Below, piece after piece: positions 5,918 through 18,000 of a DNA stretch of 45,695 nucleotides. Both the position numbers and the translations under genes were made by a program. The stretch comes from a phage, in the NCBI GenBank assembly GCA_032325415.1, contig GCA_032325415.1_4119.2; one strand, 5' to 3'. The first letter of the stretch is position 1. Every line of letters starts with the position of its first letter. The notes beneath the pieces were generated by a model, which had not been told where the DNA came from, did not search any database, and worked only from the letters and a program-made list of their open reading frames with translations.

Positions 5918-5923
5918 AAGTAC

Positions 5924-6223: not shown

Positions 6224-6228
6224 CAACG

Positions 6229-6258
6229 CGGGGAGATAATAACTCCCCGTTACTTTTT
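6229..6258 (+). terminator. rho-independent terminator
   Basis: CGGGGAG-ATAATAA-CTCCCCG followed by TTACTTTTT. Confidence 0.7.
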
Positions 6259-6391
6259 CAGTACTGAATCATTTAATAGACGGATCTCGGCACCCGGTGG
6301 GTTAGTGACTGTTTCGTCTTGATGTAGTAATTATGCCAGTACTGGATGCACTTGTCAACAATTATTTTTCAAATACTTTTTATTAAAATAC

Positions 6392-6419
6392 TTGCAATTA
6401 GTTTTTAAACGCGTATAAT
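6392..6419 (+). promoter_or_regulatory. sigma70-like promoter (cassette type)
   Basis: -35 TTGCAA 6392-6397, 16-bp spacer, -10 TATAAT 6414-6419; hairpin GGGGA-GCGGT-TCCCC. Confidence 0.65.
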
Positions 6420-6466
6420 GTTTTGCATAGGGGGAGCGGTTCCCCTGGTAACTAAGGAATAAGAAA

Positions 6467-6703
6467 ATGGTCGAACAAATCAAATCAACGTCTGCGAATG
6501 TAACGGGAACGGTATCCCACTTTACTAGTGATGAATCGCGTGGTGTTCCTTATTGTGCTGTACATGTAAACACTGATGGCAACTACTGGTTTACGGTTTA
6601 CGGATCATATTCATTTGGTCGGCCAGGACATCAAAAAATCCTGGATAAAGTACAACCAACGGGTAAAAATATCACTGCCGAAATGTTTTATAAAAAATCA
6701 TAA
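6467..6703 (+). CDS. hypothetical protein (78 aa)
   Basis: SD TAAGGAAT then ATG 6467; track ORF. Confidence 0.65.
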   Translation: MVEQIKSTSANVTGTVSHFTSDESRGVPYCAVHVNTDGNYWFTVYGSYSFGRPGHQKILDKVQPTGKNITAEMFYKKS

Positions 6704-6708
6704 AGTAC

Positions 6709-6736
6709 TTGATAATAGTTTTTAGTACTGTATAAT
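6709..6736 (+). promoter_or_regulatory. sigma70-like promoter (cassette type)
   Basis: -35 TTGATA 6709-6714, 16-bp spacer, -10 TATAAT 6731-6736; hairpin GGGGGAGCGGTTCCCCC. Confidence 0.6.
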
Positions 6737-6787
6737 ATTTTACATCGCAAGGGGGAGCGGTTCCCCCTGGTAACTAAGGATAATCAA

Positions 6788-7087
6788 ATGAAAATTGCAA
6801 TCATCGCCCTGGCTTTATCTGTTTCCTCTTTCGCTGTTAATGCGTCGTTAGATGTAAGTAGTGAAAAATTCATTCAGTGCACTGTTGCAATGACCGATGA
6901 AAGTACTGGCGAGATTGTATTAAAGGATTTAGAGATCCAGCCGGAAGCATTTAAAAACGGCCCGTTCCATGAAGAAGACGAAAAAGGTAGCACGACAATT
7001 TATTACGATGCAAGTACTAAACGCGGTTCGGTCACTGTAATGGATACGGAGAAAGTAACTCATACTGGCGTTATTAATTGCCGTTGA
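6788..7087 (+). CDS. predicted secreted/periplasmic protein (99 aa) with N-terminal signal peptide
   Basis: N-terminus MKIAIIALALSVSSFAVNA has a basic residue, hydrophobic core and AxA-like cleavage context; SD TAAGGAT. Confidence 0.65.
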   Translation: MKIAIIALALSVSSFAVNASLDVSSEKFIQCTVAMTDESTGEIVLKDLEIQPEAFKNGPFHEEDEKGSTTIYYDASTKRGSVTVMDTEKVTHTGVINCR

Positions 7088-7108
7088 TAGATACTACGGG
7101 GTAACATC

Positions 7109-7339
7109 ATGACTAAGCGAATTGTTTTACTTAACGAAAGCAGTACTACACAACTACTTAACGCCGTACATTATGATATTGAAACGAGTGTTAATCTTAT
7201 CAGTACTGTAGTACTATTGGACACTGGAAAGGTCGCCAATGAAAAAGCTATTGCAGGTGTACTAACTGATCTTGAGCCTGGTAGCAGTACACCCATAACG
7301 TTAAATGATAAAGTGTTTAATGTTTTAATTACTGAATAA
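7109..7339 (+). CDS. hypothetical protein (76 aa)
   Basis: Track ORF 22 nt after previous stop; likely co-transcribed; followed by terminator. Confidence 0.55.
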   Translation: MTKRIVLLNESSTTQLLNAVHYDIETSVNLISTVVLLDTGKVANEKAIAGVLTDLEPGSSTPITLNDKVFNVLITE

Positions 7340-7345
7340 GTACAT

Positions 7346-7368
7346 AGCCCACCTGGTGGGCTTTTTTG
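7346..7368 (+). terminator. rho-independent terminator
   Basis: AGCCCACC-TGGT-GGGCT hairpin followed by TTTTTTGTTTTTG. Confidence 0.75.
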
Positions 7369-7421
7369 TTTTTGTAGTATCGTAGTACTGAGATACTTTG
7401 AAAATAGTTTTAAGAAAGTAG

Positions 7422-7449
7422 TTGACATTACCGCAGAAAAGCGTAGAAT
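7422..7449 (+). promoter_or_regulatory. sigma70-like promoter; leader is a diverged variant of the dual-promoter module
   Basis: -35 TTGACA 7422-7427, 16-bp spacer, -10 TAGAAT 7444-7449; hairpin ACGGGGAG...; second putative promoter TTGATA 7523-7528 / TAAACT. Confidence 0.55.
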
Positions 7450-7572
7450 GTATTACATCAAGACGGGGAGCACTAAGTAGACCGCCAGTAAGTCGAACGA
7501 AAAACTGGACACGTCGAGAAAACTTTGATACACTAATAAACGTAAACTAAACTTTAATTGAGGATTTATAAA

Positions 7573-8055
7573 ATGGCTAATGTAAAATCATTCATCAAAG
7601 CACTGGTAGCAAATGAAACTAACGTCGCGGCTGAGATCCTGGCTGAACTGGATAACGATACCATGAAAGCGGTACGCAATAATTTTAACATCGCTTACAG
7701 TACTGCGAAAGAACTACAAGCAAATAAAGCGGCAGAAATTGAAGCGGCAAAGGCGGCCCGTGAAGCAGAACTACAAGCAACAATCGAAAGTATTCAGGCG
7801 GCAGTAGTTGGATTGGATCTGGAAGTAGTTACAGAGATGGCACAAAAAGCCCTGGCGGTTAAGTATGGGGAAGACAAGCCAGAAGTAAAAGCCAAAAAAT
7901 GGATTCAGGAACGCGTAGCGGTAGTACTGGACAACGGGGAAGAATATCTGATTCCGGTGCGTGGTAACTGCATTGCGGTAGTACTGGACGCGATTAACGC
8001 CAGCGGTATGACTCGCGAGGAATGGATCGAATCTCATCGCAAAGTTGAAGCATAA
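7573..8055 (+). CDS. hypothetical Ala/Glu-rich protein (160 aa)
   Basis: SD TGAGGAT then ATG 7573, in frame with track ORF 7558. Confidence 0.65.
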   Translation: MANVKSFIKALVANETNVAAEILAELDNDTMKAVRNNFNIAYSTAKELQANKAAEIEAAKAAREAELQATIESIQAAVVGLDLEVVTEMAQKALAVKYGEDKPEVKAKKWIQERVAVVLDNGEEYLIPVRGNCIAVVLDAINASGMTREEWIESHRKVEA

Positions 8056-8076
8056 CAATTAAAGTACTGAATCACT

Positions 8077-8104
8077 AGCCCACCTTAAACGGTGGGCTTT
8101 TTTG
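8077..8104 (+). terminator. rho-independent terminator
   Basis: GCCCACC-TTAAAC-GGTGGGC followed by TTTTTTGTG. Confidence 0.8.
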
Positions 8105-8257
8105 TGTTTATCGTTTACCAGGCCACCAGCACCGCCTAGAAACGATTCTAACGCATTAAACTGATTATCTGATGCATTGCCCTAGCTGGTGGCGTTAAGG
8201 CTGTAAGAACGCGATTGAGAGCGTTTAAAGTATTTTGCAAAAAGTAATAAAAAGTAC

Positions 8258-8285
8258 TTGCACGATTAAGAGATTAGCGTATAAT
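8258..8285 (+). promoter_or_regulatory. sigma70-like promoter (cassette type)
   Basis: -35 TTGCAC 8258-8263, 16-bp spacer, -10 TATAAT 8280-8285; GTTTTACATC then GC hairpin. Confidence 0.65.
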
Positions 8286-8340
8286 GTTTTACATCGAGAG
8301 GGGGAAACGGTTCTCCTTCCAAATCAAAGGAATCAAAACA

Positions 8341-8568
8341 ATGGCTATTATCATTACTCGCGTATCTGGTACTACTGGCAACGAACAAGTAGTTGCAGTC
8401 ATTACCAATAAGGAAGGTGCGGAATTGCAAAATGCAATGAATACCTGGGCCGTTAATGAGTTCGGTCAGTGGGCTAGTGTAGCATACATTGAAACCTATC
8501 AAGTGCCGTCGATTAGTTTAACTGATTTGGGCGTTGAGCGTATCCTTTGCCTGGATGAATTAAATTAA
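8341..8568 (+). CDS. hypothetical protein (75 aa)
   Basis: SD AAAGGAAT then ATG 8341; track ORF 8284 start lies inside the promoter. Confidence 0.65.
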   Translation: MAIIITRVSGTTGNEQVVAVITNKEGAELQNAMNTWAVNEFGQWASVAYIETYQVPSISLTDLGVERILCLDELN

Positions 8569-8576
8569 AAAAGTAC

Positions 8577-8604
8577 TTGCAAAGTAAATCGAATAAAGTA
8601 TAAT
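8577..8604 (+). promoter_or_regulatory. sigma70-like promoter (cassette type)
   Basis: -35 TTGCAA 8577-8582, 16-bp spacer, -10 TATAAT 8599-8604; hairpin GGGGAGAA-ATGG-TTCTCCCC. Confidence 0.65.
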
Positions 8605-8653
8605 ACATTACATCAAGGGGAGAAATGGTTCTCCCCACTACAAGGAAACTAAA

Positions 8654-8797
8654 ATGAAAACTTGTCAATGTGGTCAGAAATCTATTACGGGTTTAAAGCG
8701 GGGCGTTGCTCTTTGCCAGTACCATTATAATTTACAAGTATGGGGTAAAGAATGGGCCGATCAAGTGGAAGCAATCAAGAAAGCAAAAAGTAAGTAA
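8654..8797 (+). CDS. small Cys-rich protein (47 aa), not in ORF track
   Basis: Complete cassette (promoter, hairpin, SD AAGGAAA, ATG 8654) with ORF MKTCQCGQKSITGLKRGVALCQYHYNLQVWGKEWADQVEAIKKAKSK; possible metal-binding CxC...C..H. Confidence 0.55.
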   Translation: MKTCQCGQKSITGLKRGVALCQYHYNLQVWGKEWADQVEAIKKAKSK

Positions 8798-8809
8798 AAA
8801 TATTATCAC

Positions 8810-8845
8810 AGTACTATTGACATAGTTTGATAGTACTGGCATAAT
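8810..8845 (+). promoter_or_regulatory. promoter with operator-like inverted repeat AGTACTAT-N12-ATAGTACT
   Basis: AGTACTAT 8810-8817, -35 TTGACA 8817-8822, ATAGTACT 8830-8837, -10 CATAAT 8840-8845. Confidence 0.6.
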
Positions 8846-8878
8846 AGATTTTATCAAGACAACTAAGAGGAAATTAAA

Positions 8879-9223
8879 ATGGCTAACATCAACACTATCG
8901 CAGCACAAAATATCAACCTGTCTTCTGTTGAAGTTGTACATATTGCCGCTCGGCGTTGGTTCCAGGCTTCATATGGTAACACTTATTTCTCTTTAAGTGT
9001 AGACGTAGAAATTGATGGTAATTTTATTGAAGTAGTAAACGTGCCGTTCCAATATGGATACGGGGATCACTTTGACACTGTAGCAATGGAAGAATTTAGC
9101 AAGGTTATTAATATGGAAGATAAAGAGTTTTTACGCGGTTCTTATCTTTCCCGTTTTTGCCGTGACAATAATATCACTGTTTACAGTTCGGTAACTGATG
9201 TTAAACGCAAAAAAGATCTTTAA
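8879..9223 (+). CDS. hypothetical protein (114 aa), distant paralog of 15482..15805
   Basis: SD TAAGAGG then ATG 8879; shares RW..GNTY and C-terminal DVKRKKD with 15482..15805. Confidence 0.65.
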   Translation: MANINTIAAQNINLSSVEVVHIAARRWFQASYGNTYFSLSVDVEIDGNFIEVVNVPFQYGYGDHFDTVAMEEFSKVINMEDKEFLRGSYLSRFCRDNNITVYSSVTDVKRKKDL

Positions 9224-9303
9224 TTAGCTTTACTTTATGCAGATACTTTGATATAGTGTCTGCATAGGGGAAAGAAATTAAATTAACTTAAGAGGATAGT
9301 ATA

Positions 9304-9573
9304 ATGAAAAATATCAGTACTTTAATCGATGCAGGTACTCATGTTCGTCGGTCTATGGTTGCAACCAGTACTACAAAACAAGTAGCGAGCGGTTATCTTG
9401 TATTTGTGCACGATGGAAAACTCCTGGAACGTTCAATCAATTTTGATGTTAAAAACAATTGCCGTTTTATTATCTTTAAGCGTGAGCAATATAAAATTGA
9501 TTTGCCAGCGAAGCCCATTAGCGGGGCGTATAACGTCTATTCATTGTTTGAGCGTCAACCATACACCTATTAA
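9304..9573 (+). CDS. hypothetical protein (89 aa)
   Basis: SD TAAGAGGA then ATG 9304; preceded by hairpin ATGCAGA-N-TCTGCAT 9236-9266. Confidence 0.6.
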   Translation: MKNISTLIDAGTHVRRSMVATSTTKQVASGYLVFVHDGKLLERSINFDVKNNCRFIIFKREQYKIDLPAKPISGAYNVYSLFERQPYTY

Positions 9574-9624
9574 TCAAAACATCGTTAGCGGTCGATTTAG
9601 GCCGCTTATATTGGGGATTATACC

Positions 9625-9897
9625 ATGAACGTTAATCAAGTACTGAATGAAGTTGAAAGCATCATTAAACCAATGAAACGCATTGATGCTATGTTAACAC
9701 CGGAAGAATGCCGCCTTTATGAGCGTTACAGCGTCGAACAAGTCCAGGCAATGGCTATGGCTACCCCAGCCGTTAAACCGCCTGAGAATGCGTTACAGGA
9801 CGTTACAGGGGATTATATCATTAATCCAGTACTAGGGAAGATGGCTGCAATCACCGAAGATCAACAAGACTACTTAAGCCAGTACTTAAAAGGTTAA
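9625..9897 (+). CDS. hypothetical protein (90 aa)
   Basis: Track ORF; SD GGGGA upstream. Confidence 0.55.
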   Translation: MNVNQVLNEVESIIKPMKRIDAMLTPEECRLYERYSVEQVQAMAMATPAVKPPENALQDVTGDYIINPVLGKMAAITEDQQDYLSQYLKG

Positions 9898-9902
9898 TTA
9901 AT

Positions 9903-10112
9903 ATGCTTACTGTACAGGATAAGATCGACATCTTAAAGGTTAATATGTATGTGATTGATGCCGTACCTGGTAAAGTATTTGCATACGATGATAGTACTGT
10001 AAGCGATTTCTACTATAGCCAGGCCGTGGGGGATCTTTCTGTACAGTCGGTTATTGAAAATGTAGTTAATGCAGCGTATGAGCATTTACTTTCAAATAGT
10101 ACTTGCAATTAG
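9903..10112 (+). CDS. hypothetical protein (69 aa)
   Basis: Track ORF 5 nt after previous stop; its stop TAG 10110-10112 lies immediately after the next -35. Confidence 0.55.
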   Translation: MLTVQDKIDILKVNMYVIDAVPGKVFAYDDSTVSDFYYSQAVGDLSVQSVIENVVNAAYEHLLSNSTCN

Positions 10113-10130
10113 TTTTTAAACGCGTATAAT
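10103..10130 (+). promoter_or_regulatory. sigma70-like promoter (cassette type)
   Basis: -35 TTGCAA 10103-10108, 16-bp spacer, -10 TATAAT 10125-10130; hairpin GCGGGAATAGTTCCCCC. Confidence 0.65.
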
Positions 10131-10182
10131 GTTTTACATCGAGAGCGGGAATAGTTCCCCCCTCACTTTTAAGGAATATGAA

Positions 10183-10329
10183 ATGAAAGCATCAAAAAAG
10201 AGTACTAACAAGAAAGCACGTTCAACCTTAGATGGGGTATTCCCTTTACGTTTCGTTGATGAAGTGGTTTCCTACCCGCCTGGCCTTACTCCTGAGATGG
10301 TAGAAAGTTTGCGTAAATCTAAAAAATAG
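10183..10329 (+). CDS. small basic protein (48 aa)
   Basis: SD AAGGAAT then ATG 10183, in frame with track ORF 10129 whose start is in the promoter. Confidence 0.55.
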   Translation: MKASKKSTNKKARSTLDGVFPLRFVDEVVSYPPGLTPEMVESLRKSKK

Positions 10330-10332
10330 TAC

Positions 10333-10360
10333 TTGCAATTAGTTTTTAGTACTGTATAAT
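10333..10360 (+). promoter_or_regulatory. sigma70-like promoter (cassette type)
   Basis: -35 TTGCAA 10333-10338, 16-bp spacer with CAGTACTG, -10 TATAAT 10355-10360; hairpin GGGGAGAA-ATGA-TTCTCCCC. Confidence 0.65.
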
Positions 10361-10410
10361 GTTTTACATGAAGGGGAGAAATGATTCTCCCCAATAACAG
10401 GAGAAACAAA

Positions 10411-10563
10411 ATGAAACAATACAACGCTCGGTTTGATGTTACTATCGGTAACGGCAAAGGTCAATTCTCTTTCAGTACTCGCCGCAGTTATACAGAAAAC
10501 TTCCTGCGTAATTGTGCACTGACCGCCGCTCAAATTAAACATTACTTTCAGGCTAAAAAATGA
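10411..10563 (+). CDS. small protein (50 aa)
   Basis: SD CAGGAGA then ATG 10411, in frame with track ORF 10381. Confidence 0.55.
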   Translation: MKQYNARFDVTIGNGKGQFSFSTRRSYTENFLRNCALTAAQIKHYFQAKK

Positions 10564-10649
10564 GATCATTAGCTTATTACAGTTCGGCCCTGGTCGGTGC
10601 ATTGATCGCGGCGTTGTTAGTAACCTATCTATTCTTTATGGTGATTTAA
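10560..10649 (+). CDS. small hydrophobic membrane peptide (29 aa)
   Basis: ATG 10560 overlaps upstream stop (ATGA); MRSLAYYSSALVGALIAALLVTYLFFMVI is a single predicted transmembrane helix; not in track. Confidence 0.45.
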   Translation: MRSLAYYSSALVGALIAALLVTYLFFMVI

Positions 10650-10784
10650 ATGAATCCTAACGGTATAGTTTACAGTACTCCTAAAACGAAAGCAGATAAA
10701 GCTAAAGCACGTAAAGCGAAAGTAAAGGAGTACATCAAGCAAGGCATGACACGAAAGGCCGCAGTACTTAAAGCTAAAAAATAA
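10650..10784 (+). CDS. small Lys-rich basic protein (44 aa)
   Basis: ATG 10650 directly follows the previous stop (TAAATG); MNPNGIVYSTPKTKADKAKARKAKVKEYIKQGMTRKAAVLKAKK; not in track. Confidence 0.4.
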   Translation: MNPNGIVYSTPKTKADKAKARKAKVKEYIKQGMTRKAAVLKAKK

Positions 10785-10787
10785 ATG

Positions 10788-10882
10788 AAAAAAGTGGTTG
10801 ACTTCGGTCAGCCATTTTGCTATTATATATTCATTGAGAGATAGCTCACTAGCCCACAGGGTGCAGGAGTGTATCTATTATA
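10788..10882 (+). repeat. R module copy 1: terminator-like hairpin with embedded promoter plus conserved core AGCCCACAGGGTGCAGGAGTGTATCT
   Basis: Hairpin GTGGTTGAC-TTCG-GTCAGCCAT (wobble-compensated), -35 TTGACT 10798-10803, -10 TATTAT 10821-10826; homologous to 14813, 17527, 19497. Confidence 0.65.
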
Positions 10883-10920
10883 TGAGTATTGAGTACTGAA
10901 AACTATTTTTAAAAAAGTAC

Positions 10921-10948
10921 TTGCAAACTATCTCAATAAGCGTATAAT
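10921..10948 (+). promoter_or_regulatory. sigma70-like promoter (cassette type)
   Basis: -35 TTGCAA 10921-10926, 16-bp spacer, -10 TATAAT 10943-10948; hairpin AGGGGAAAC-G-GTTTCCCCT. Confidence 0.65.
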
Positions 10949-10999
10949 GTTTTACATCGAAAGGGGAAACGGTTTCCCCTGGTAATAAGGAAACAAATC

Positions 11000-11341
11000 A
11001 TGACTATCTCAATTGCTCAATCTAACTTTGAAAATGAAATCATCGCCCAGGCACTGCGTTTAAATGATGGTCGGGCCGAAATTAATTACGGTTTCAATTC
11101 AGGCGGTTGTGAAAAATATCAGTACTTTGTAACGGCTGATGGCGGTGTCCTGGGTATCAATACAGTTATTGTAAACATCCAAAAAATTAATTTCAATGAT
11201 CCAGAGGATAGCCAGTTTTACATCACTGGCGTAGACGTGAACTATGAGGATGACTCACTAACTGATGATCACACTGGTGAGCGGTTAGAAAGTGCATACG
11301 GTGAAGATGATTATCAGTCCGGTCCAGAAGATTTCGAATAA
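11000..11341 (+). CDS. hypothetical acidic protein (113 aa)
   Basis: SD TAAGGAAA then ATG 11000; track ORF. Confidence 0.65.
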   Translation: MTISIAQSNFENEIIAQALRLNDGRAEINYGFNSGGCEKYQYFVTADGGVLGINTVIVNIQKINFNDPEDSQFYITGVDVNYEDDSLTDDHTGERLESAYGEDDYQSGPEDFE

Positions 11342-11355
11342 TATAAAAAAATAGT

Positions 11356-11383
11356 TTGACAATAGATTATAGTACTGTATAAT
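11356..11383 (+). promoter_or_regulatory. sigma70-like promoter (cassette type)
   Basis: -35 TTGACA 11356-11361, 16-bp spacer with AGTACTG, -10 TATAAT 11378-11383; hairpin GGGGAGAA-TAG-TTCTCCCC. Confidence 0.65.
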
Positions 11384-11436
11384 AGTTTACATCAAGGGGA
11401 GAATAGTTCTCCCCACTAACAGAGAGAGAAAACAAA

Positions 11437-11649
11437 ATGGCTAATATCCGGTCGAAATTAAAAAATGCAAAACAAGTTTTATTTTCAGATCATGAATACT
11501 TTAATAAAGATATTACAGGAGTTACAAGTATCAAGGAAGTAAAAGAAAAAACCGGCGTTTTGTGTGATGTGCGATTAGTTGGAACATTTGGGAATAACGT
11601 GCTATATCGCTGCGGTGATTACAATTTTACACTGACTATCATTAACTAA
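11437..11649 (+). CDS. hypothetical protein (70 aa)
   Basis: ATG 11437 after AGAGAGAGAAAACAAA leader; track ORF. Confidence 0.6.
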   Translation: MANIRSKLKNAKQVLFSDHEYFNKDITGVTSIKEVKEKTGVLCDVRLVGTFGNNVLYRCGDYNFTLTIIN

Positions 11650-11661
11650 AAATATTATCAC

Positions 11662-11697
11662 AGTACTATTGACATAGTTTGATAGTACTGACATAAT
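11662..11697 (+). promoter_or_regulatory. promoter with operator-like inverted repeat AGTACTAT-N12-ATAGTACT
   Basis: AGTACTAT 11662-11669, -35 TTGACA 11669-11674, ATAGTACT 11682-11689, -10 CATAAT 11692-11697. Confidence 0.6.
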
Positions 11698-11731
11698 AAC
11701 TTTTATCAACTACACTACTAAGGAATTAAAA

Positions 11732-11911
11732 ATGGCTATCATCGCAAAAACTGAAATCATCGGCCTGGATTCTATCATCATGACGTTTGAAGATCAAAAA
11801 GGTATGTATGTGGTTTCCTATGGTGATTATGTTCGGGAGTATGAAACGGTAGACGAAGCCTTTGAAAGTTACATTCGCCAGGTGAATAAAGCATACGACG
11901 ACTACCGCTAA
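11732..11911 (+). CDS. small protein (59 aa), not in ORF track
   Basis: SD TAAGGAAT then ATG 11732; ORF MAIIAKTEIIGLDSIIMTFEDQKGMYVVSYGDYVREYETVDEAFESYIRQVNKAYDDYR; the minus-strand track ORF 11778..11978 is rejected. Confidence 0.55.
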   Translation: MAIIAKTEIIGLDSIIMTFEDQKGMYVVSYGDYVREYETVDEAFESYIRQVNKAYDDYR

Positions 11912-11922
11912 AATATATTACC

Positions 11923-11966
11923 AGTACTATTAAATCTATTGACAATGTTTGATAGTACTGTATAAT
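11923..11966 (+). promoter_or_regulatory. promoter with operator-like inverted repeat AGTACTAT-N21-ATAGTACT
   Basis: AGTACTAT 11923-11930, -35 TTGACA 11939-11944, ATAGTACT 11952-11959, -10 TATAAT 11961-11966. Confidence 0.6.
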
Positions 11967-12010
11967 AAGTTTTATCAACAGTAGTTAACTTAACCTAAGA
12001 GAGAAACAAA

Positions 12011-12154
12011 ATGATCGCACTGGATTCATTCATCGACGCAGTACTGGCAAAAACTGGCGAGGATCTGACCGCAGAACAATACGCGATGATCGAGCAATGC
12101 CAGCAAGACGGTAAATCGGTGAAAGATACTGTTAAGATTATCCGCAAGATGTAA
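12011..12154 (+). CDS. small protein (47 aa), not in ORF track
   Basis: SD TAAGAGAGA then ATG 12011; ORF MIALDSFIDAVLAKTGEDLTAEQYAMIEQCQQDGKSVKDTVKIIRKM; followed by terminator. Confidence 0.5.
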   Translation: MIALDSFIDAVLAKTGEDLTAEQYAMIEQCQQDGKSVKDTVKIIRKM

Positions 12155-12160
12155 GATTAT

Positions 12161-12190
12161 AGCCCACTGGTTAACGCTGGTGGGCTTTAA
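12161..12190 (+). terminator. probable rho-independent terminator
   Basis: AGCCCAC-TGGTTAACGC-TGGTGGGCT hairpin then TTTAATT (weak T-run). Confidence 0.55.
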
Positions 12191-12259
12191 TTCATTACCC
12201 TATACAATGCCAGTACTACACCGTTTATCTCGTTAGAATGCGTTACAGGACGTTTGACA

Positions 12260-12457
12260 ATGATTAGCATGAAATCAGTACAAAAACAAATAGAAACATT
12301 ATCAAAAATTAAACGTAAACAGTACTCCTTAGAATATACAATCAATGGTAACTATCATCTAATGAAAGAGAATAATTTTATCGTCATTGATGAATCATTG
12401 CAAATCATTAGTATAGTACTGAAAGCATTAATCAATGACAGAAAAAAATTAAAATAA
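12260..12457 (+). CDS. hypothetical AT-rich protein (65 aa)
   Basis: Track ORF; ATG 12260 with SD-like AGGACG 7 nt upstream; no cassette promoter; composition differs from neighbours. Confidence 0.4.
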   Translation: MISMKSVQKQIETLSKIKRKQYSLEYTINGNYHLMKENNFIVIDESLQIISIVLKALINDRKKLK

Positions 12458-12461
12458 ACTA

Positions 12462-12490
12462 TTGACAATATCATCAAGTACTGGCATAAT
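12462..12490 (+). promoter_or_regulatory. sigma70-like promoter
   Basis: -35 TTGACA 12462-12467, 17-bp spacer with AGTACTG, -10 CATAAT 12485-12490. Confidence 0.55.
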
Positions 12491-12541
12491 ACTTACATCA
12501 AGACGAGAACGTCACTAACCCATAGGGTGCACAAATGTAAC

Positions 12542-12625
12542 TGTATAATATTGATCAAAAAATGATCTGATCAATACTTGATCAATTTGCGTAAAGTAGT
12601 ATAATTCTGATCAATTCTTGATCAA
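12542..12625. promoter_or_regulatory. cluster of six GATC sites (five within TGATCAA palindromes) flanked by extended -10-like elements
   Basis: GATC at 12553, 12564, 12569, 12580, 12609, 12620; TGTATAAT 12542-12549 and TAGTATAAT 12597-12605. Confidence 0.55.
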
Positions 12626-12786
12626 AGGCAATAAACGCAGTTGAATTTATATAGACAATACAAAGGCGTTACTATCCGTGGTAATGCTGGTGGATATGTA
12701 GTATCATATGGTTTGAATAAGATTAGCACTAGTAGTATTATTGTAGCATTACAGTACTATAGTATTTTTATAATGAGGTTAAAATA

Positions 12787-13044
12787 ATGGCTGTTGGATT
12801 CGCGAAGGACGGGGCCGAGCAAGACGAGATTAACGCAGTGATTCAGGCCGCTGTAAACCACGCTAGAACGCAAATTAACGCACAAATAGAATCACTGATA
12901 CATTGCCTCGACTGTGGCGATAAAATCCCTGAGAATCGCCGCCAGGTCGTTAAGGGGTGTAAGTACTGTATCACTTGCCAGGAGGATCATGATAGTACTT
13001 TTAAACGTCAACCGCGTAATTGTTGGCATAGATCTATGAGATAA
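12787..13044 (+). CDS. TraR/DksA-family C4 zinc-finger protein (85 aa), likely RNA-polymerase-binding regulator
   Basis: CLDCGDKIPENRRQVVKGCKYCITCQ matches the TraR/DksA zinc-finger pattern CxxCG-x-IP-x-x-RR ... CxxCQ (compare F-plasmid TraR CEACGNPIPEARRK...CVECQ). Confidence 0.8.
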   Translation: MAVGFAKDGAEQDEINAVIQAAVNHARTQINAQIESLIHCLDCGDKIPENRRQVVKGCKYCITCQEDHDSTFKRQPRNCWHRSMR

Positions 13045-13050
13045 AAAGTA

Positions 13051-13078
13051 TTGACAGTACTGAAAGATAGTGTATAAT
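13051..13078 (+). promoter_or_regulatory. sigma70-like promoter
   Basis: -35 TTGACA 13051-13056, 16-bp spacer with AGTACTG, -10 TATAAT 13073-13078. Confidence 0.6.
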
Positions 13079-13107
13079 GTTTTATATCTTAACTGAGGAT
13101 AGAAATC

Positions 13108-13464
13108 ATGGGAATACAACATATCACGCGTACTACTGACAATGGCGAGATCACTGGCTATCAAGTACAGGGCAAAGTAGCACAATTGCAGTACTGGTTT
13201 GTTAAACGTGGAATCATTGCACCGGATCTTGATTATGACCGTGTAGCGTTTATTGATTCTCTTTATGTTGATCCTGATAGTCGGGGGAATGGTGAAGGTA
13301 ACGAATTAATGAATGCCTTTATTGATGCCGCCGATGATTCAGATTGTATCATCTTAGAATGCGATACGGGAGAAGATAACGCCTTTAATCTTAAAGAATG
13401 GTATGAAGGTTTCGGATTCGAGGTACTGATCGATAGTGAATATCCTATCATGATTTTATCATAG
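13108..13464 (+). CDS. putative GNAT-family N-acetyltransferase (118 aa)
   Basis: SLYVDPDSRGNGEGNELMNAF resembles GNAT motif A (R/Q-x-x-G-x-G/A acetyl-CoA loop) and EWYEGFGFE resembles motif B; SD TGAGGAT. Confidence 0.55.
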   Translation: MGIQHITRTTDNGEITGYQVQGKVAQLQYWFVKRGIIAPDLDYDRVAFIDSLYVDPDSRGNGEGNELMNAFIDAADDSDCIILECDTGEDNAFNLKEWYEGFGFEVLIDSEYPIMILS

Positions 13465-13467
13465 TAC

Positions 13468-13496
13468 TTGCATTTAGTTTTCAGTACTGTTATAGT
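13468..13496 (+). promoter_or_regulatory. sigma70-like promoter (cassette type)
   Basis: -35 TTGCAT 13468-13473, 17-bp spacer with CAGTACTG, -10 TATAGT 13491-13496; hairpin AGGGGAA-ACATC-TTCCCCT. Confidence 0.55.
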
Positions 13497-13542
13497 ACTT
13501 GCATCAAGGGGAAACATCTTCCCCTACTAAGAGGAAATAAAA

Positions 13543-13731
13543 ATGGAAAACTTATCAAGTATTTTAGTACAAGATGATTTCGGTAATCCTGGAAGTGCTA
13601 TCATTGTTCGGGGTAATAAAGCAACATTTGTTATTGCTGGTGGACCTGTACAGCGTAGCATTAAAAACAATGCCGTTACTATTAATAATGTACGCTATCG
13701 CTTAGATAAAGAATTGATTCATAAACTGTAA
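13543..13731 (+). CDS. hypothetical protein (62 aa)
   Basis: SD TAAGAGGA then ATG 13543; track ORF. Confidence 0.6.
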   Translation: MENLSSILVQDDFGNPGSAIIVRGNKATFVIAGGPVQRSIKNNAVTINNVRYRLDKELIHKL

Positions 13732-13758
13732 TATTAATTTAATAGAGGATAACAATAA

Positions 13759-14082
13759 ATGTACATTCATACTACTATCACAAAGGAAGTCCGTTGCCAG
13801 TTCGAAAGTATTCCGGGCGTATGTTTCATCACTGGTACGTTTTCCCCTGGTGATCGTGATAATCCAGTACTGTTACAATTACGCCATCCATCATGGGATA
13901 AAGCATTTGATCTACCGTTGAATGAATTCGCAACTACTGCTGAAAAGTACATTAAAAATATTCGCGAGAATGATCGACTATTCATTAATGCTTTTAGTGA
14001 TTCCGCGTTAAGCGAGATCCACGGCGTATTGGTTGCAATCATGGAATCAATGCAGAAAACTAAATTCAAACAAGGTGAATAA
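13759..14082 (+). CDS. hypothetical protein (107 aa)
   Basis: SD AGAGGA then ATG 13759; track ORF; overlapping minus-strand ORF 13767..14177 rejected. Confidence 0.6.
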   Translation: MYIHTTITKEVRCQFESIPGVCFITGTFSPGDRDNPVLLQLRHPSWDKAFDLPLNEFATTAEKYIKNIRENDRLFINAFSDSALSEIHGVLVAIMESMQKTKFKQGE

Positions 14083-14088
14083 AAACTA

Positions 14089-14116
14089 TTGACAATGCAA
14101 TCCAGTACTGTATAAT
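14089..14116 (+). promoter_or_regulatory. sigma70-like promoter (cassette type)
   Basis: -35 TTGACA 14089-14094, 16-bp spacer with CAGTACTG, -10 TATAAT 14111-14116; hairpin GGGGAGAA-ATGA-TTCTCCCC. Confidence 0.65.
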
Positions 14117-14165
14117 AAGTTACATGAAGGGGAGAAATGATTCTCCCCACTGAGAGGAAAGAAAA

Positions 14166-14378
14166 ATGCAAGGTCAACTAATCGTTCGTAAATGGTCTGA
14201 TACTAACGAAAAACCGTGGGATGTACAATACATCGGACCGGATGGGGTATCACGTTATCAGCCTGGCGTAACGCATAGTACTGAGCAATTCGCCAACGCT
14301 CACCGCGAACGCCTGTTAGAATCCATGAAACAGGGATACGGTGAAAAATTCATTCAAGATCATTGGCTGAAAGATTAA
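14166..14378 (+). CDS. hypothetical protein (70 aa)
   Basis: SD TGAGAGGA then ATG 14166; track ORF. Confidence 0.65.
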   Translation: MQGQLIVRKWSDTNEKPWDVQYIGPDGVSRYQPGVTHSTEQFANAHRERLLESMKQGYGEKFIQDHWLKD

Positions 14379-14395
14379 TATAAGGAGTACAGCTT

Positions 14396-14488
14396 ATGCA
14401 AATGAATCCGATGATTATTGTTTTAGCTGTACTTATGATCATTCATGCAATAGTAGAAGTATTAACGCAATCAGGAGTAATAAAATGA
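14396..14488 (+). CDS. small hydrophobic membrane peptide (30 aa)
   Basis: Strong SD TAAGGAG then ATG 14396; MQMNPMIIVLAVLMIIHAIVEVLTQSGVIK; not in track. Confidence 0.5.
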   Translation: MQMNPMIIVLAVLMIIHAIVEVLTQSGVIK

Positions 14489-14658
14489 TTCAAGTAGAAT
14501 TATCAGTACTGAAAGATCTGTTTTATCGGTTAGGTACTACTGGAGAGTATCCTAAAAGTGATACCGCAAAACTTTTTGTATCACTCGACTTATGGCAACG
14601 CGAACAATTAGTAATGTCCTGGCGTAAAGGTAAAGCAGATAGCGAGGTGAAAGCATGA
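14485..14658 (+). CDS. small protein (57 aa)
   Basis: ATG 14485 overlaps upstream stop (ATGA) with SD CAGGAG inside the upstream ORF; not in track. Confidence 0.45.
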   Translation: MIQVELSVLKDLFYRLGTTGEYPKSDTAKLFVSLDLWQREQLVMSWRKGKADSEVKA

Positions 14659-14804
14659 AAGAATTCTTATTCGAAGTAGTGTTTCAAGGTGTCGGTAGTA
14701 ACCAACTGATTCGCTCAAGTGGTTATAATGTTAACCAGGCATGGAATAACATTAAACAAATGTACCCGAACGCTATCACCTATCGCAACCCGAAAGAAGT
14801 TTAA
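14655..14804 (+). CDS. small protein (49 aa)
   Basis: ATG 14655 overlaps upstream stop (ATGA); SD GAGGTG; not in track. Confidence 0.45.
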   Translation: MKEFLFEVVFQGVGSNQLIRSSGYNVNQAWNNIKQMYPNAITYRNPKEV

Positions 14805-14812
14805 AAATATTT

Positions 14813-14900
14813 GAAAAAGGGATTGACTCCGGTCAGTCCCTTTGCTATTATATACGCATAGAAACAAATCAGCCCACAGGGTGCATAAATGTATCTATTG
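14813..14900 (+). repeat. R module copy 2 (terminator-like hairpin, embedded promoter, conserved core)
   Basis: AAAAAGGGATTGACTCCGGTCAGTCCCTTT hairpin; -35 TTGACT 14823-14828, -10 TATTAT 14846-14851; core AGCCCACAGGGTGCATAAATGTATCT. Confidence 0.65.
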
Positions 14901-14935
14901 TTTGCTGGTGGCTAGTACTGAAAACTATTTTTAAA

Positions 14936-15117
14936 AAGTACTTGCATTGTACTTAGAATCAAGTATAATGTTTTACATCAGGACGGGGAACGAAACAAGT
15001 AACCCCGTTAAGTAGTCCAGGAGTAAGACATAAGAAAACCTCCCCTGATAAAATAGTTTGACAATAGAAAGTAAAAGAGTATAATACTTACATCAACCAC
15101 TGATAAGGAAACATAAA
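14936..15117 (+). repeat. dual-promoter leader module, copy 2 (near-identical to 3990-4172)
   Basis: Promoter A (-35 TTGCAT 14942-14947, -10 TATAAT 14964-14969), hairpin ACGGGGAA...CCCCGT, conserved AAGTAGTCCAGGAGTAAGACATAAGAAAACCTCCCCTGATAAAATAG, promoter B (-35 TTGACA 15058-15063, -10 TATAAT 15080-15085). Confidence 0.7.
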
Positions 15118-15393
15118 ATGCGGATTCTACTGACAGCTAACGAAATCGAACAAGTACTGACTACTAACCTGGAAGACTGGAAACGTGAAGCAGATATCCA
15201 GGCGGTTCAACGGCTTAACGATGAGTTAACGCCGGATGACTTAAGCAAGATTGTAGATCCTCAATTCTACGAAGATATCCACGACACCGCGTTAAGCGTC
15301 GAGGATGTACTAGATAAGCACTACATTGATATTGATTTGCAGGTTTACGGTCGTAAAAACTTTATCACTATTCACGACATTTACAATAATTAA
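15118..15393 (+). CDS. hypothetical acidic protein (91 aa)
   Basis: SD TAAGGAAA then ATG 15118; track ORF. Confidence 0.65.
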   Translation: MRILLTANEIEQVLTTNLEDWKREADIQAVQRLNDELTPDDLSKIVDPQFYEDIHDTALSVEDVLDKHYIDIDLQVYGRKNFITIHDIYNN

Positions 15394-15396
15394 GTA

Positions 15397-15424
15397 TTGA
15401 CAAAGTATCTTAGTACTGTATAAT
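15397..15424 (+). promoter_or_regulatory. sigma70-like promoter (cassette type)
   Basis: -35 TTGACA 15397-15402, 16-bp spacer with AGTACTG, -10 TATAAT 15419-15424; hairpin GAGGGGAA-ACGG-TTCCCCTC. Confidence 0.65.
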
Positions 15425-15481
15425 AGTTTACATCAAGTGAGGGGAAACGGTTCCCCTCCTAACAAAGAGAGAGAAATAAAA

Positions 15482-15805
15482 ATGGCTATGATCCTTACCC
15501 AGAAAGTGGAACTGAAAATTGTAACCTCCTTTGACATTAACGTTAATCGGTGGACTGATTCACACGGCAATACTTACCACTCTTGCTACGTGTCTGCTTT
15601 AATTGGCGACCGCTGGGAAGACCTGGGACACGAAACCTTTACATACGGTTACGGTACACAAGGCGAATACACGGGCTTGGAGATCATTAAAGAAACCGTT
15701 ATAGGTTTCAACCCGAAAGAAAAAGTTATTCACCGCATCGAGGAAGAGATCAACAAAGAAATAACAGTTCGCTACCACGATGTAAAACGTAAGAAAGACA
15801 TGTAA
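15482..15805 (+). CDS. hypothetical protein (107 aa), distant paralog of 8879..9223
   Basis: ATG 15482 in frame with track ORF 15437 whose start is in the leader hairpin. Confidence 0.65.
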   Translation: MAMILTQKVELKIVTSFDINVNRWTDSHGNTYHSCYVSALIGDRWEDLGHETFTYGYGTQGEYTGLEIIKETVIGFNPKEKVIHRIEEEINKEITVRYHDVKRKKDM

Positions 15806-15819
15806 TAGAATCCATTTAA

Positions 15820-15856
15820 AGTACTATTTGACATTGCCCAGATAGTACTTTATAAT
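15820..15856 (+). promoter_or_regulatory. promoter with operator-like inverted repeat AGTACTAT-N14-ATAGTACT
   Basis: AGTACTAT 15820-15827, -35 TTGACA 15828-15833, ATAGTACT 15842-15849, -10 TATAAT 15851-15856. Confidence 0.6.
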
Positions 15857-15900
15857 AGACTCTAACTTGTAGTACTAACTCAACTAATAGGATGTATACC

Positions 15901-16296
15901 ATGATTACTAAATTCTACGCTACCCGTGAAGCTGCCCGTATTGTTGCACGCGAGGAAGGAGCAGCATTTAAAGACATGGGCAAAGATGCACCGAAAGGCC
16001 AACGCTGGGCCGTACAGTTCAAAGAGATCTCTGATATTGTGAATTCACCTGAGCCAGTACTAACAGCAGCAGAACTAAAACGAGCGGATTTACTGGCGTC
16101 AATACTTGATGCACAAGATGAGTTTATCGCTGATTCTGATATCAAAGTACAGACAAACCATACCGCTTGGACTCACGCGGATCACCTGGCAAACCTGAAG
16201 CGTCCAAGTGAACTGGTACGCAACCAGAAAGAGATCCGACACGACCGTAAGGGTAATCGTGTAACAGTATACAGTAAACGCCGCCAGGTTATCTAA
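15901..16296 (+). CDS. hypothetical protein (131 aa), paralog of 3163..3429
   Basis: ATG 15901 chosen by paralog alignment and SD AGGAT spacing; track start 15892 is an alternative. Confidence 0.6.
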   Translation: MITKFYATREAARIVAREEGAAFKDMGKDAPKGQRWAVQFKEISDIVNSPEPVLTAAELKRADLLASILDAQDEFIADSDIKVQTNHTAWTHADHLANLKRPSELVRNQKEIRHDRKGNRVTVYSKRRQVI

Positions 16297-16318
16297 TAAC
16301 TTGCAGTACTAACAACAC

Positions 16319-16344
16319 GGCGGGATCAGTTCCCGCCTTTTTTA
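16319..16344 (+). terminator. rho-independent terminator
   Basis: GGCGGGA-TCAG-TTCCCGCC followed by TTTTTTAT. Confidence 0.8.
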
Positions 16345-16357
16345 TAGGACAAACAAA

Positions 16358-16612
16358 ATGATTAAGGTTCAACTATATAAAGATAATATCTTGCGGGTAC
16401 ACTATAAAGCCCCTCAGAGAATCATCACAAAGGCCGTACAGCTTGCTAATGAGTTTATTAATGGTAACCTATTACCTAGGAAGTTAAGCAACGGGAAACT
16501 GCGTGTAATCGACGTGGACACTAACAACAGGATAGTAATCGAGAACACAGGAAAGATAAACCTTTATGAGCATCAACAATACAATAAGAAAATAAAACTA
16601 ATATCACGTTGA
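16358..16612 (+). CDS. hypothetical protein (84 aa)
   Basis: Track ORF downstream of terminator; weak SD. Confidence 0.5.
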   Translation: MIKVQLYKDNILRVHYKAPQRIITKAVQLANEFINGNLLPRKLSNGKLRVIDVDTNNRIVIENTGKINLYEHQQYNKKIKLISR

Positions 16613-16637
16613 CAGTACTCAAATGTTTTAGTACTAT
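16609..16637 (+). promoter_or_regulatory. putative sigma70-like promoter
   Basis: -35 TTGACA 16609-16614, 17-bp spacer, -10 TACTAT 16632-16637. Confidence 0.45.
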
Positions 16638-16666
16638 ATGTACATACCAACACGGGGAGAAACAAA

Positions 16667-16909
16667 ATGATTACTTTAGAAAAACGTATCAAAGAAACTA
16701 CATCGCTGGTGGAACTGTTAACAGTACTCAAATGTAAAACTACTCGGTTTAGTACACCGGACTTTATTAATATGGTTGATGTTAATGGTCGCTATCGTAT
16801 CACGGTCGAACAAGGAGCGGCGAAAGTATTCAGTACTAAAAACACTAAGGAAGTGATTCACGCTGTAAGTGTTAAAAAAGTAGTTGCCATTGATAGTAAA
16901 GTACTGTAA
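16667..16909 (+). CDS. hypothetical protein (80 aa)
   Basis: SD GGGGAGA then ATG 16667; track ORF. Confidence 0.55.
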   Translation: MITLEKRIKETTSLVELLTVLKCKTTRFSTPDFINMVDVNGRYRITVEQGAAKVFSTKNTKEVIHAVSVKKVVAIDSKVL

Positions 16910-16940
16910 GATAGTTTCATTAACTCAAGGAGAACATGCA

Positions 16941-17525
16941 ATGCGTAATTATACTAAATTCATCCGTACCCTGTCAGAAATGGAAACCAACAAAGAGATC
17001 CTTTCAGCTTGTCGGTTAGCTGGTCTGGAGATCATCGGTGCGGGTTCTTCCCGTATTGTATTCGCTTTAAATGATCGGTTAGTGATTAAGGTCGCGAATT
17101 GTGATGCGGGTGTAGAACAAAATGAAACTGAATGTAAGGTATGGAATTTTTTAGATTATGACCGCCCTCAATTGAAACAGTACTTTGCAAAGGTGCATAT
17201 GCATTTATGCGATCCTGATAATATGTTTATCGTTATGGATCGGTTGAGTACTGCAAGTAAAGGCAGTGTAAAGCACGTAAACGCGTGCAATGAATTAAAG
17301 TACAATATTAAACGTAATGCCATTGAACGCCAGCACCGCTTTGCTGATGCACTACAACACGTTGATGATACATTATCAACACTAACGATAAGAGATATCA
17401 GAAAACAGAATATCGGCCAGGATCGTAATGGCCTTATTAAAGTACTTGATTACGGTTTAACCCGCAATATCTGGAATCAGTACTATAAAAAGCGTGATGT
17501 AGAAGCAAGTAAGGTAACACGATAA
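16941..17525 (+). CDS. putative small protein-kinase-like protein (194 aa)
   Basis: SD AAGGAG then ATG 16941; motifs IGAGSSRIVF (Gly-rich loop), LVIKVA (VAIK-like Lys), IRDIRKQNIG (HRD-x-K-x-x-N-like catalytic loop), KVLDYGL (DFG-like). Confidence 0.55.
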   Translation: MRNYTKFIRTLSEMETNKEILSACRLAGLEIIGAGSSRIVFALNDRLVIKVANCDAGVEQNETECKVWNFLDYDRPQLKQYFAKVHMHLCDPDNMFIVMDRLSTASKGSVKHVNACNELKYNIKRNAIERQHRFADALQHVDDTLSTLTIRDIRKQNIGQDRNGLIKVLDYGLTRNIWNQYYKKRDVEASKVTR

Positions 17526-17526
17526 A

Positions 17527-17612
17527 AAAAGATTAAAAAAGGGATTGACTCCGGTCAGTCCCTTTGCTATTATATATTCATTGAGAGATAACTCACTGAC
17601 CCATAGGGTGCG
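17527..17612 (+). repeat. R module copy 3 (terminator-like hairpin, embedded promoter, conserved core)
   Basis: AAAAAAGGGATTGACTCCGGTCAGTCCCTTT; -35 TTGACT 17545-17550, -10 TATTAT 17568-17573; core GACCCATAGGGTGCGGAAGTGTATCT. Confidence 0.65.
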
Positions 17613-17666
17613 GAAGTGTATCTATTATATAAGTATTCAGTACTGAAAACTATTTTTAAAAAGTAC

Positions 17667-17694
17667 TTGCATTGTACTTAGAATCAAGTATAAT
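17667..17694 (+). promoter_or_regulatory. sigma70-like promoter (cassette type)
   Basis: -35 TTGCAT 17667-17672, 16-bp spacer, -10 TATAAT 17689-17694; hairpin GAGAGGGGAA-ATGG-TTCTCCCTC. Confidence 0.65.
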
Positions 17695-17747
17695 GTTTTA
17701 TATCGAGAGGGGAAATGGTTCTCCCTCAAAGAACAAGGAATAAAATC

Positions 17748-17969
17748 ATGACTACAATGACTTGCATTCACGCTTCAAACCTGCTTAATGATGCGGCCTT
17801 TAATGTTGAAACAGAATATCAATGTTATCGGGATGAAAATAAAAAAGTTTTTGTAGTTGATAATAATGGTTTCCATATTGAATTGCAATCCGGCTTCACT
17901 GGCGTTGATGGTAAATCAGTATGGGGAGTACAGGATGATAAAGGCACATATCATTTTAAACGTAATTAA
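17748..17969 (+). CDS. hypothetical protein (73 aa)
   Basis: SD AAGGAAT then ATG 17748, in frame with track ORF 17715. Confidence 0.65.
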   Translation: MTTMTCIHASNLLNDAAFNVETEYQCYRDENKKVFVVDNNGFHIELQSGFTGVDGKSVWGVQDDKGTYHFKRN

Positions 17970-17972
17970 GTA

Positions 17973-18000
17973 TTGACAAAGTATATCAGTACTGTATAAT
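17973..18000 (+). promoter_or_regulatory. sigma70-like promoter (cassette type)
   Basis: -35 TTGACA 17973-17978, 16-bp spacer with CAGTACTG, -10 TATAAT 17995-18000; hairpin GGGGAGAA-TAG-TTCTCCCC. Confidence 0.65.

Follow-up and report, generated by a model that had tools for sequence, protein, structure and literature searches.

A YbiI-like DksA/TraR-family zinc-finger protein with a phage-specific tip and tail in an Asteriusvirus coliphage

Introduction

The locus described here raises the question of whether a jumbo coliphage encodes an effector of host RNA polymerase (RNAP) of the kind exemplified by TraR of the F plasmid. The window, a stretch of phage DNA of 45,695 nucleotides, carries a short plus-strand gene at 12787-13044 that the original prediction had assigned to the TraR/DksA family on account of its C4 zinc-finger signature. 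The features that a working TraR requires are well defined: an N-terminal helix tipped with DxxDxA, P45 and the C4 zinc domain, together with R48 (acting on the rim helices), R49 and E46 (acting on β′Si3) and a C-terminal helix that touches β Si1 (PMC9239242; PMC6970531). The contacts of the TraR docking residues with the β′ rim helices and β′Si3 have been demonstrated experimentally (PMC9239242; PMC6970531). The DxxDxA motif is required for the activity of TraR, lambda Orf73 and DksA alike (PMC9239242). A DksA-like mode of action is not universal among C4 zinc-finger homologues, and some of those without DxxDxA do not share it (PMC9239242). The phage protein is therefore considered below element by element, from the gene and its family to the docking surface, the tip, the tail and the genomic setting.

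The gene and its source genome

The open reading frame was confirmed, with an ATG start and 85 codons followed by a stop codon (Table 1). The window derives from an Asteriusvirus (121Q-like) jumbo coliphage, and the 2 kb around the gene share 93-97% identity with the Asteriusvirus jumbo coliphages 121Q, fEgEco12 and vB_Ec-M-J. A protein of Escherichia phage Turkey3 is 100% identical to the 85-aa product, and the 121Q counterpart is gp294, annotated as "DksA-like zinc-finger protein". Near-identical genes are publicly annotated under this name or as "TraR/DksA C4-type zinc finger protein"; the family-level assignment is correct, already present in public annotations and expected from homology.

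Table 1. Positions of the zinc-finger gene, its sequence elements and the upstream features of its unit in the window.
Feature	Position	Strand	Remarks
DksA/TraR-family C4 zinc-finger CDS, YbiI-like branch	12787..13044	+	85 aa, ATG start, stop included
Shine-Dalgarno GAGG	12775-12778	+	8 nt 5' of the zinc-finger ATG, read from the sequence
N-terminal segment MAVGFAKDGAEQDE, presumed channel-inserting tip	12787..12828	+	Residues 1-14, near-invariant
Zinc ribbon C40-x2-C43-x17-C61-x2-C64, including I47-P48-E49-x-R51-R52	12904..12978	+	Pfam residues 39-68
C-terminal tail FKRQPRNCWHRSMR	13000..13041	+	Residues 72-85, near-invariant, subfamily-specific; replaces the YbiI-type YNRRGSKDSQLR
48-aa ORF, TTG start	12641..12787	+	121Q gp293, phrog_38664; upstream of the zinc-finger gene
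Likeliest promoter of the unit, TTGACA-17-CATAAT with TG	12462..12490	+	Followed by the ACTTACATCAAG leader
Alternative promoter-like site, TTGATC-16-TATAAT (10/12)	12578..12605	+	Embedded in the TGATCA cluster
TGATCA (Dam GATC) cluster, five sites	12552..12624	.	5' leader/promoter region of the unit

Family assignment and branch

The zinc ligands are C40, C43, C61 and C64, arranged as C-x2-C-x17-C-x2-C with the same spacing as in F TraR, and CLDCGDKIPENRRQVVKGCKYCITCQ corresponds to residues 40-65; C58 and C79 are further cysteines. This signature, from which the original prediction had started, is indeed present, and all four ligands are invariant in 46 homologues. The profile search that had been proposed as a check bore out the assignment: Pfam PF01258 (zf-dskA_traR) matched residues 39-68 with 43.9 bits (E 2.3e-11), above its gathering score of 24.9, and PHROG 54 ("DksA-like zinc-finger protein") matched with an E value of 1.8e-18. 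A Pfam match to Cystatin (E 0.008, under the cut-off) was dismissed as noise. An AF2 model built from the 46 homologues (pLDDT 72.6) comprises a helix at residues 6-32, the zinc ribbon and a short helix at residues 62-68, which is the family's order of long helix, zinc ribbon and C-terminal helix. The top PDB matches of this model in Foldseek were YbiI (2KGO), RNAP-bound TraR (6N57_M and 5W1S_M) and RNAP-bound DksA (7KHI_M), with modest TM-scores of 0.4-0.5. Since the Pfam match lies above threshold and the fold best matches YbiI, TraR and DksA, membership in the DksA/TraR C4 zinc-finger family is supported.

Within this family, E. coli YbiI, and not F TraR, is the closest of the characterised members, and the protein is YbiI-like rather than TraR-like. 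The best NCBIfam match is NF008243, the YbiI equivalog (NF008243 / PRK11019), with a score of 80.1 that is below the cut-off of 96; the scores for the TraR subfamily (TIGR02419; 51.5, cut-off 59.7) and the TraR equivalog (NF010268; 32.4, cut-off 108) are likewise below their cut-offs, and the DksA model gives 17.9 bits. Among solved structures, E. coli YbiI (PDB 2KGO) ranks first by sequence (E 8.7e-12, residues 1-70) and F TraR (PDB 5W1S, 6N57) second (E ~3e-6). The claim of a close alignment with F TraR is somewhat generous: the BLASTP match to TraR is gapped and spans 59 residues at 36% identity, and YbiI is clearly closer. A literature search found no functional study on YbiI.

A word-indexed search returned 46 homologue clusters with 50-95% identity, 84-88 aa in length apart from one run-on variant of 145 aa, all from Asteriusvirus and T4-like phages. 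The T4-like carriers are Citrobacter phage Moon, the Yersinia phages MHG19, fHe-Yen9-01 and YenM_P8, and the Escherichia phages RZ and VR26; in T4-like phages the homologue is located in the tk-rI-mobD-nrdC hyperplastic region. An exhaustive HMMER search over 1.84 billion representatives gave 2121 matches at E<=1e-3. The only match below 1e-30 was the subfamily's own 50% cluster, and the next tier (E ~1e-23) consisted of YbiI-type proteins of 88 aa. An MAxG[FWY] N-terminus is found in 125 of the 149 family representatives, and 37 of the 149 end in the tail N[RK]RG[SNT]KDS[QR]LR.

Selection on the gene

Relative to 121Q, the zinc-finger gene evolves with a dN/dS of ~0.2. Given this ratio, the Pfam and PHROG matches and the 46 homologue clusters, the protein is a real gene product and not a chance ORF. 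In the comparison with the T4-like YenM_P8 homologue, dS is saturated, and all differences in codons 5-12 at the N-terminus, as well as those in most tail codons, are synonymous. Because the changes are confined to synonymous ones despite saturated dS, both termini are constrained as protein, and purifying selection acts on the amino-acid sequence of the two motifs. This constraint agrees with contact to a highly conserved host target. The same data bear on the reading that the ORF is a remnant in decay or without function, as might be suggested by the Mosigvirus phages PhAPEC2 and SA35RD, which carry only a chimeric truncated form. However, the ORF in the window is intact, the 46 clusters are full-length, and the low dN/dS and the retention of both motifs across saturated synonymous divergence effectively refute decay, the probability of which is regarded as negligible.

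In the two Mosigvirus phages, what is left of the zinc-finger gene (2390-2560 of the examined stretch in PhAPEC2) is a chimeric 56-aa ORF ending in ...YCVGCQSMHDEIFKREPRN, with a frameshift ahead of CWHRSMR. A secondary match of the window protein to phrog_25948 is due to this chimeric remnant.

The docking surface

The 46 homologues all share C40, C43, I47, P48, R51, R52, G57, C61 and C64, and the conservation of E49 is at least 90%. The residues I47, P48, E49, R51, R52 and G57 align to I44, P45, E46, R48, R49 and G54 of TraR, and the counterparts of TraR P43 and K50 vary within the subfamily. Alignment and model together point to a docking surface that is conserved and to a tip and C-terminal element that are variant.

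This pattern is pertinent to a role unrelated to RNAP, in which a YbiI-type zinc protein would use its conserved N-terminus and its Cys/Trp/His-rich tail to hold a second metal or to engage a different host target, metal or stress physiology being one conceivable setting. The closest relative, YbiI, is without an established function, and the authors who tested it favoured a role in iron metabolism (PMC2613031). The absence of DxxDxA and the inactivity of several C4 zinc-finger homologues on RNAP (PMC9239242) are compatible with such a role, and the co-occurrence of the NCWHRSMR tail with H25 may mean an extra metal or ligand site. On the other hand, the invariant residues other than cysteine are precisely those with which TraR contacts RNAP, the top fold matches include RNAP-bound TraR and DksA, and all phage TraR homologues tested so far act on RNAP (PMC9239242). 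A role away from RNAP is accordingly judged to be decidedly improbable.

The N-terminal tip

In place of the canonical tip motif, the alignment of 46 homologues has the near-invariant N-terminus MAVGFAKDGAEQ. The window protein begins with MAVGFAKDGA and the subfamily follows the pattern MAVGFAKDGAEQxE, in which M1, A2 and G4 are invariant and V3, F5, K7, D8, G9, A10, E11, Q12 and E14 are at least 90% conserved. A DxxDxA motif was sought in the protein with MAFFT, BLASTP and both global and local hhalign, and none was located. The conserved acidic pattern is instead D8-x-x-E11-x-x-E14 (D8-G-A-E11-Q-x-E14). The distance to the first cysteine is 32 residues for D8, 29 for E11 and 27 for position 13, the same as for D3, D6 and A8 of lambda Orf73, in whose family D6 and A8 are invariant. 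The N-terminal registers obtained with MAFFT (against TraR, Orf73 and YbiI), BLASTP and hhalign are mutually inconsistent, and a local profile-profile alignment with the Orf73 family covers only residues 21-73, leaving out residues 1-20. As the registers conflict, a correspondence of D8 and E11 to the DxxDxA residues is not claimed beyond their equal distance to the first cysteine.

A non-canonical tip on conserved docking residues could also belong to a secondary-channel binder with a different output, such as a Gre-like anti-arrest or cleavage factor, a passive plug or a general initiation inhibitor. The tip motif of Gre factors is DxxExA (PMC9239242), and the near-invariant D8-G-A-E11 resembles its D-x-x-E. 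If D8 and E11 were equivalent to D3 and D6, the five extra invariant residues MAVGF would occupy the active-site region. For the plug variant, Rnk is known to bind RNAP without Gre or DksA activity (PMC9239242), and a plug would exclude DksA, GreA and GreB. A Gre-like interpretation is nevertheless weakened by the tip register, which differs among alignment methods, and by the architecture of Gre factors, which have another globular domain and a two-helix coiled coil. Furthermore, overexpression of YbiI was reported, with data not shown, to rescue dksA auxotrophy, suggesting a DksA-like rather than a Gre-like output (PMC2613031). Overall, an output of this different type is considered unlikely, albeit with a probability large enough to be taken into account.

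The C-terminal tail and residue 25

At the other end of the protein, the window tail reads PRNCWHRSMR, and the subfamily consensus is (F)KRxPRNCWHRSMR. One representative (P0069) carries the intermediate tail HNRKVWHRSMR, which argues for an origin of the tail by ordinary divergence and not by frameshift. An origin by simple frameshift of YNRRGSKDSQLR-coding DNA was considered and rejected, the resemblance between phiEap-3 and window DNA being short and non-significant. In the AF2 model, the tail is mostly non-helical, with helical residues at 79-81 only and low confidence. As a comparison between models only, the C-terminal helix (residues 62-68) is about half as long as that of the Orf73-family control model (residues 57-70).

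Residue 25, on the N-terminal helix, tracks the type of tail. It is Arg in bacterial proteins with YNRRGSKDSQLR, Phe, Tyr or Trp in phage proteins with YNRRGSKDSQLR, and His in those with WHRSMR tails, the intermediate P0069 included. This covariation, seen in the alignment, may reflect a contact between helix and tail, a second metal site (H25/C79/H81) or only phylogenetic linkage.

From the unusual termini, a broader proposal can be framed in which the RNCWHRSMR-tailed YbiI-like proteins of virulent Asteriusvirus and T4-like phages constitute a mechanistically distinct class of secondary-channel effectors. In such a class, MAVGFAKDGAEQ, with a Gre-like D-x-x-E and extra residues but no DxxDxA, may reach or occlude the active site; the Cys/Trp/His tail that co-varies with H25 may make a new contact or form a second metal site; and the output may be unlike that of TraR and DksA, e.g., a shut-off of host initiation or an effect on elongation. 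This proposal is considered unlikely.

Genomic context, promoters and leader

In vB_Ec-M-J, the zinc-finger gene is EcMJ_029, located at 12.3 kb within an annotated direct terminal repeat of 21.5 kb. In fEgEco12, a terminal repeat of ~21 kb was confirmed by PhageTerm and restriction mapping (PMC13070987). The fEgEco12 genome paper lists a phage sigma factor and, among the annotated functions, no phage RNA polymerase (PMC13070987), which suggests that the phage depends on host RNAP. Around the gene lie dozens of small plus-strand genes. Nine perfect TTGACA-16/17-TATAAT promoters were found on the plus strand between 4.1 and 18 kb, all with A/T-rich discriminators, and the same interval contains no perfect -35/-10 pair on the minus strand. 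A host-takeover module built on sigma70-type promoters had been proposed as the setting of the gene, and the small plus-strand genes, the perfect TTGACA/TATAAT promoters and the terminal repeat agree with that description.

The early promoters (4113-18000 of the window) share the template aaaaTAGT-TTGACA-N10-GTACTG-TATAAT-AGTTTACATCAAG, as exemplified at 11356-11383, 13051-13078 and 14089-14116, and several of them are followed in the 5' UTR by a GGGGAGAA...TTCTCCCC hairpin. In the promoter scan of the window, the zinc-finger gene had no perfect promoter of its own. Judged by its sequence, the site at 12462-12490 most likely starts the transcription unit, and the ACTTACATCAAG leader behind it is typical of the phage's early promoters. 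The leader from this promoter would be ~290 nt long and contains a mini-ORF, the TGATCA cluster and the 48-aa ORF. A structured RNA or riboswitch in the leader was considered and set aside, with no Rfam match at E<=1 and a fold z-score of -0.77.

Five of the 13 TGATCA hexamers of the window fall within the 73 bp of the cluster, and the hexamer is not enriched window-wide (13 observed, 18.6 expected). Both 121Q and vB_Ec-M-J keep four of the five hexamers, with five GATC sites in all. The cluster resembles sites under Dam/SeqA control, such as the TGATCA/G hexamer clusters of the P1 pac site. The mini-ORF, an ATG-TAA start-stop at 12536-12541, lies 7 nt after an SD-like AGGGTG. It stands where other early units place their first gene, the gap here being unusually long (330 bp), and is possibly the scar of a deleted gene.

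The TAA stop of the 48-aa ORF overlaps the zinc-finger ATG (TAATG). Relative to 121Q, this ORF shows 11 differences, nine of them at third codon positions; its own frame has seven synonymous and three non-synonymous codons, and the other two frames have no synonymous ones. The 48-aa ORF is probably a real gene that is translationally coupled to the zinc-finger gene. Neither in T4-like phages nor in a Salmonella jumbo-phage contig was this ORF found next to the zinc-finger homologue. A "YVVSYG" motif is common to the 48-aa ORF and ORF 11732-11911.

The probable coupling invites the suggestion that the zinc-finger protein acts only in complex with a phage partner, for which the product of the 48-aa ORF, with its stop/start overlap and coding substitution pattern, would be the candidate. 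There is a precedent in the TraR-QisA complex of vibriophage VP882, which causes growth arrest (bioRxiv 10.64898/2026.07.27.740977). However, the 48-aa ORF is confined to Asteriusvirus, and homologues elsewhere have unrelated upstream genes. Because the termini are invariant while the upstream genes differ, any universal partner is more likely to be a host molecule, and an obligate phage partner is given only a slim chance.

Directly downstream, at 13108-13464, lies a gene for a very small GNAT acetyltransferase (118 aa), which has a perfect promoter to itself (13051-13078); this enzyme, too, is a candidate for an early protein that modifies the host. ORF 13759-14082 matches DUF7247.

Proposed function

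The gene is real and under purifying selection, its product belongs to the DksA/TraR family with conserved docking residues, and its predicted fold and genomic context fit an action on RNAP. With confidence slightly better than even, the protein is therefore proposed to be an early, ppGpp-independent effector of host RNAP that works through the secondary channel in the manner of TraR and Orf73; binding to RNAP, promoter selectivity, expression timing and benefit to the phage are here derived from the family and the context. The analogy draws on the phage TraR homologues tested, five out of five of which bound RNAP, complemented a dksA deletion and inhibited rRNA and ribosomal-protein promoters (PMC9239242). 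In the case of lambda Orf73, an increase in burst size was also reported (PMC9239242). The reported rescue of dksA auxotrophy by overexpressed YbiI, the closest relative, points in the same direction (PMC2613031). Several observations count against a TraR-like function: DxxDxA is missing, the C-terminal helix is predicted to be short, the NCBIfam scores lie under their cut-offs, and inactive C4 homologues exist.

Under the proposed mechanism, the protein would be made early by host sigma-70 RNAP from the terminal-repeat early region. Its long N-terminal helix would run down the secondary channel and thereby bring the invariant acidic N-terminus (D8, E11, E14) near the active site. RNAP would then be altered allosterically without ppGpp, and promoters with short-lived open complexes, i.e., those for rRNA and ribosomal proteins, would be inhibited. 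The phage early promoters, with their consensus -35 and -10 elements and A/T-rich discriminators, would be spared. As host promoters would be inhibited and phage early promoters spared, host polymerase and resources would shift toward the phage.

If this function holds, the protein would be one of the means by which large virulent coliphages, which appear to rely on host RNAP, redirect that enzyme within minutes of infection while the stringent response stays untriggered. The TraR/Orf73 paradigm, drawn from plasmids and temperate phages, would then also cover lytic phages of the jumbo and T4-like kinds, and the uncharacterised YbiI branch, E. coli YbiI included, would gain its first functional handle. 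The conserved N- and C-terminal motifs offer ready targets for mutagenesis.

Comparison with known systems

Of the systems described so far, E. coli YbiI matches best in both sequence and fold, with a profile-profile probability of 99.8% over the whole length. The two proteins share the N-terminus MAxG[F/W]AxDxA, a single long N-terminal helix and a zinc ribbon with IPxxRR, and they are similar in size (88 aa for YbiI and 85 aa for the window protein); the N-terminal signature MAxG[F/W]xxDxA of YbiI is also present in the window protein. They differ at position 11, which is Val in YbiI-type proteins and Glu in the window protein, at position 25, which is Arg in bacterial YbiI and His in the window protein, and in the tail, where a near-universal YNRRGSKDSQLR is replaced by RNCWHRSMR. 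Furthermore, ybiI is a chromosomal gene without functional characterisation, whereas the window gene is phage-borne and predicted to be early. Closer in setting are the YbiI-like proteins of Slopekvirus phiEap-3, Alcyoneusvirus Muenster, Salmondvirus JA13 and Lazarusvirus Berthold, which are 37-51% identical to the window protein and share with it MA(V/S)G(F/W), the zinc ribbon and a length of ~85-88 aa. Their genes, like the window gene, belong to large lytic phages and are found there in regions that are early or hyperplastic. These four differ from the window protein in retaining the YNRRGSKDSQLR tail and in the aromatic nature of residue 25.

F TraR has in common with the window protein the C-x2-C-x17-C-x2-C spacing, the equivalent docking residues, a single N-terminal helix in place of the DksA coiled coil and residence on a mobile element. 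In contrast to F TraR, the window protein is without DxxDxA, is 12 residues longer, has a shorter predicted C-terminal helix and carries an extra tail. Lambda Orf73, an experimentally established phage-encoded TraR homologue with a proposed role in diverting host transcription during lytic growth (PMC9239242), is 47% identical over the zinc ribbon, where the two share CQED as well as the extra cysteine of VV(K/Q)GC. D3xxD6xA8 is invariant in Orf73, whose C-terminal helix reaches the protein end and whose gene belongs to the exo-xis region of a temperate phage, whereas the window gene comes from a virulent jumbo phage and lies in the early region of its terminal repeat. DksA belongs to the same Pfam zinc-finger family, and its RNAP-bound form (7KHI) is among the top fold matches, but DksA is larger (151 aa) and has a coiled coil of two helices, residues for ppGpp binding and DxxDxA at its tip. 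Among these systems, the window protein, whose family-level annotation was already public, is YbiI-like and set apart by a tip and a tail that are specific to phages.
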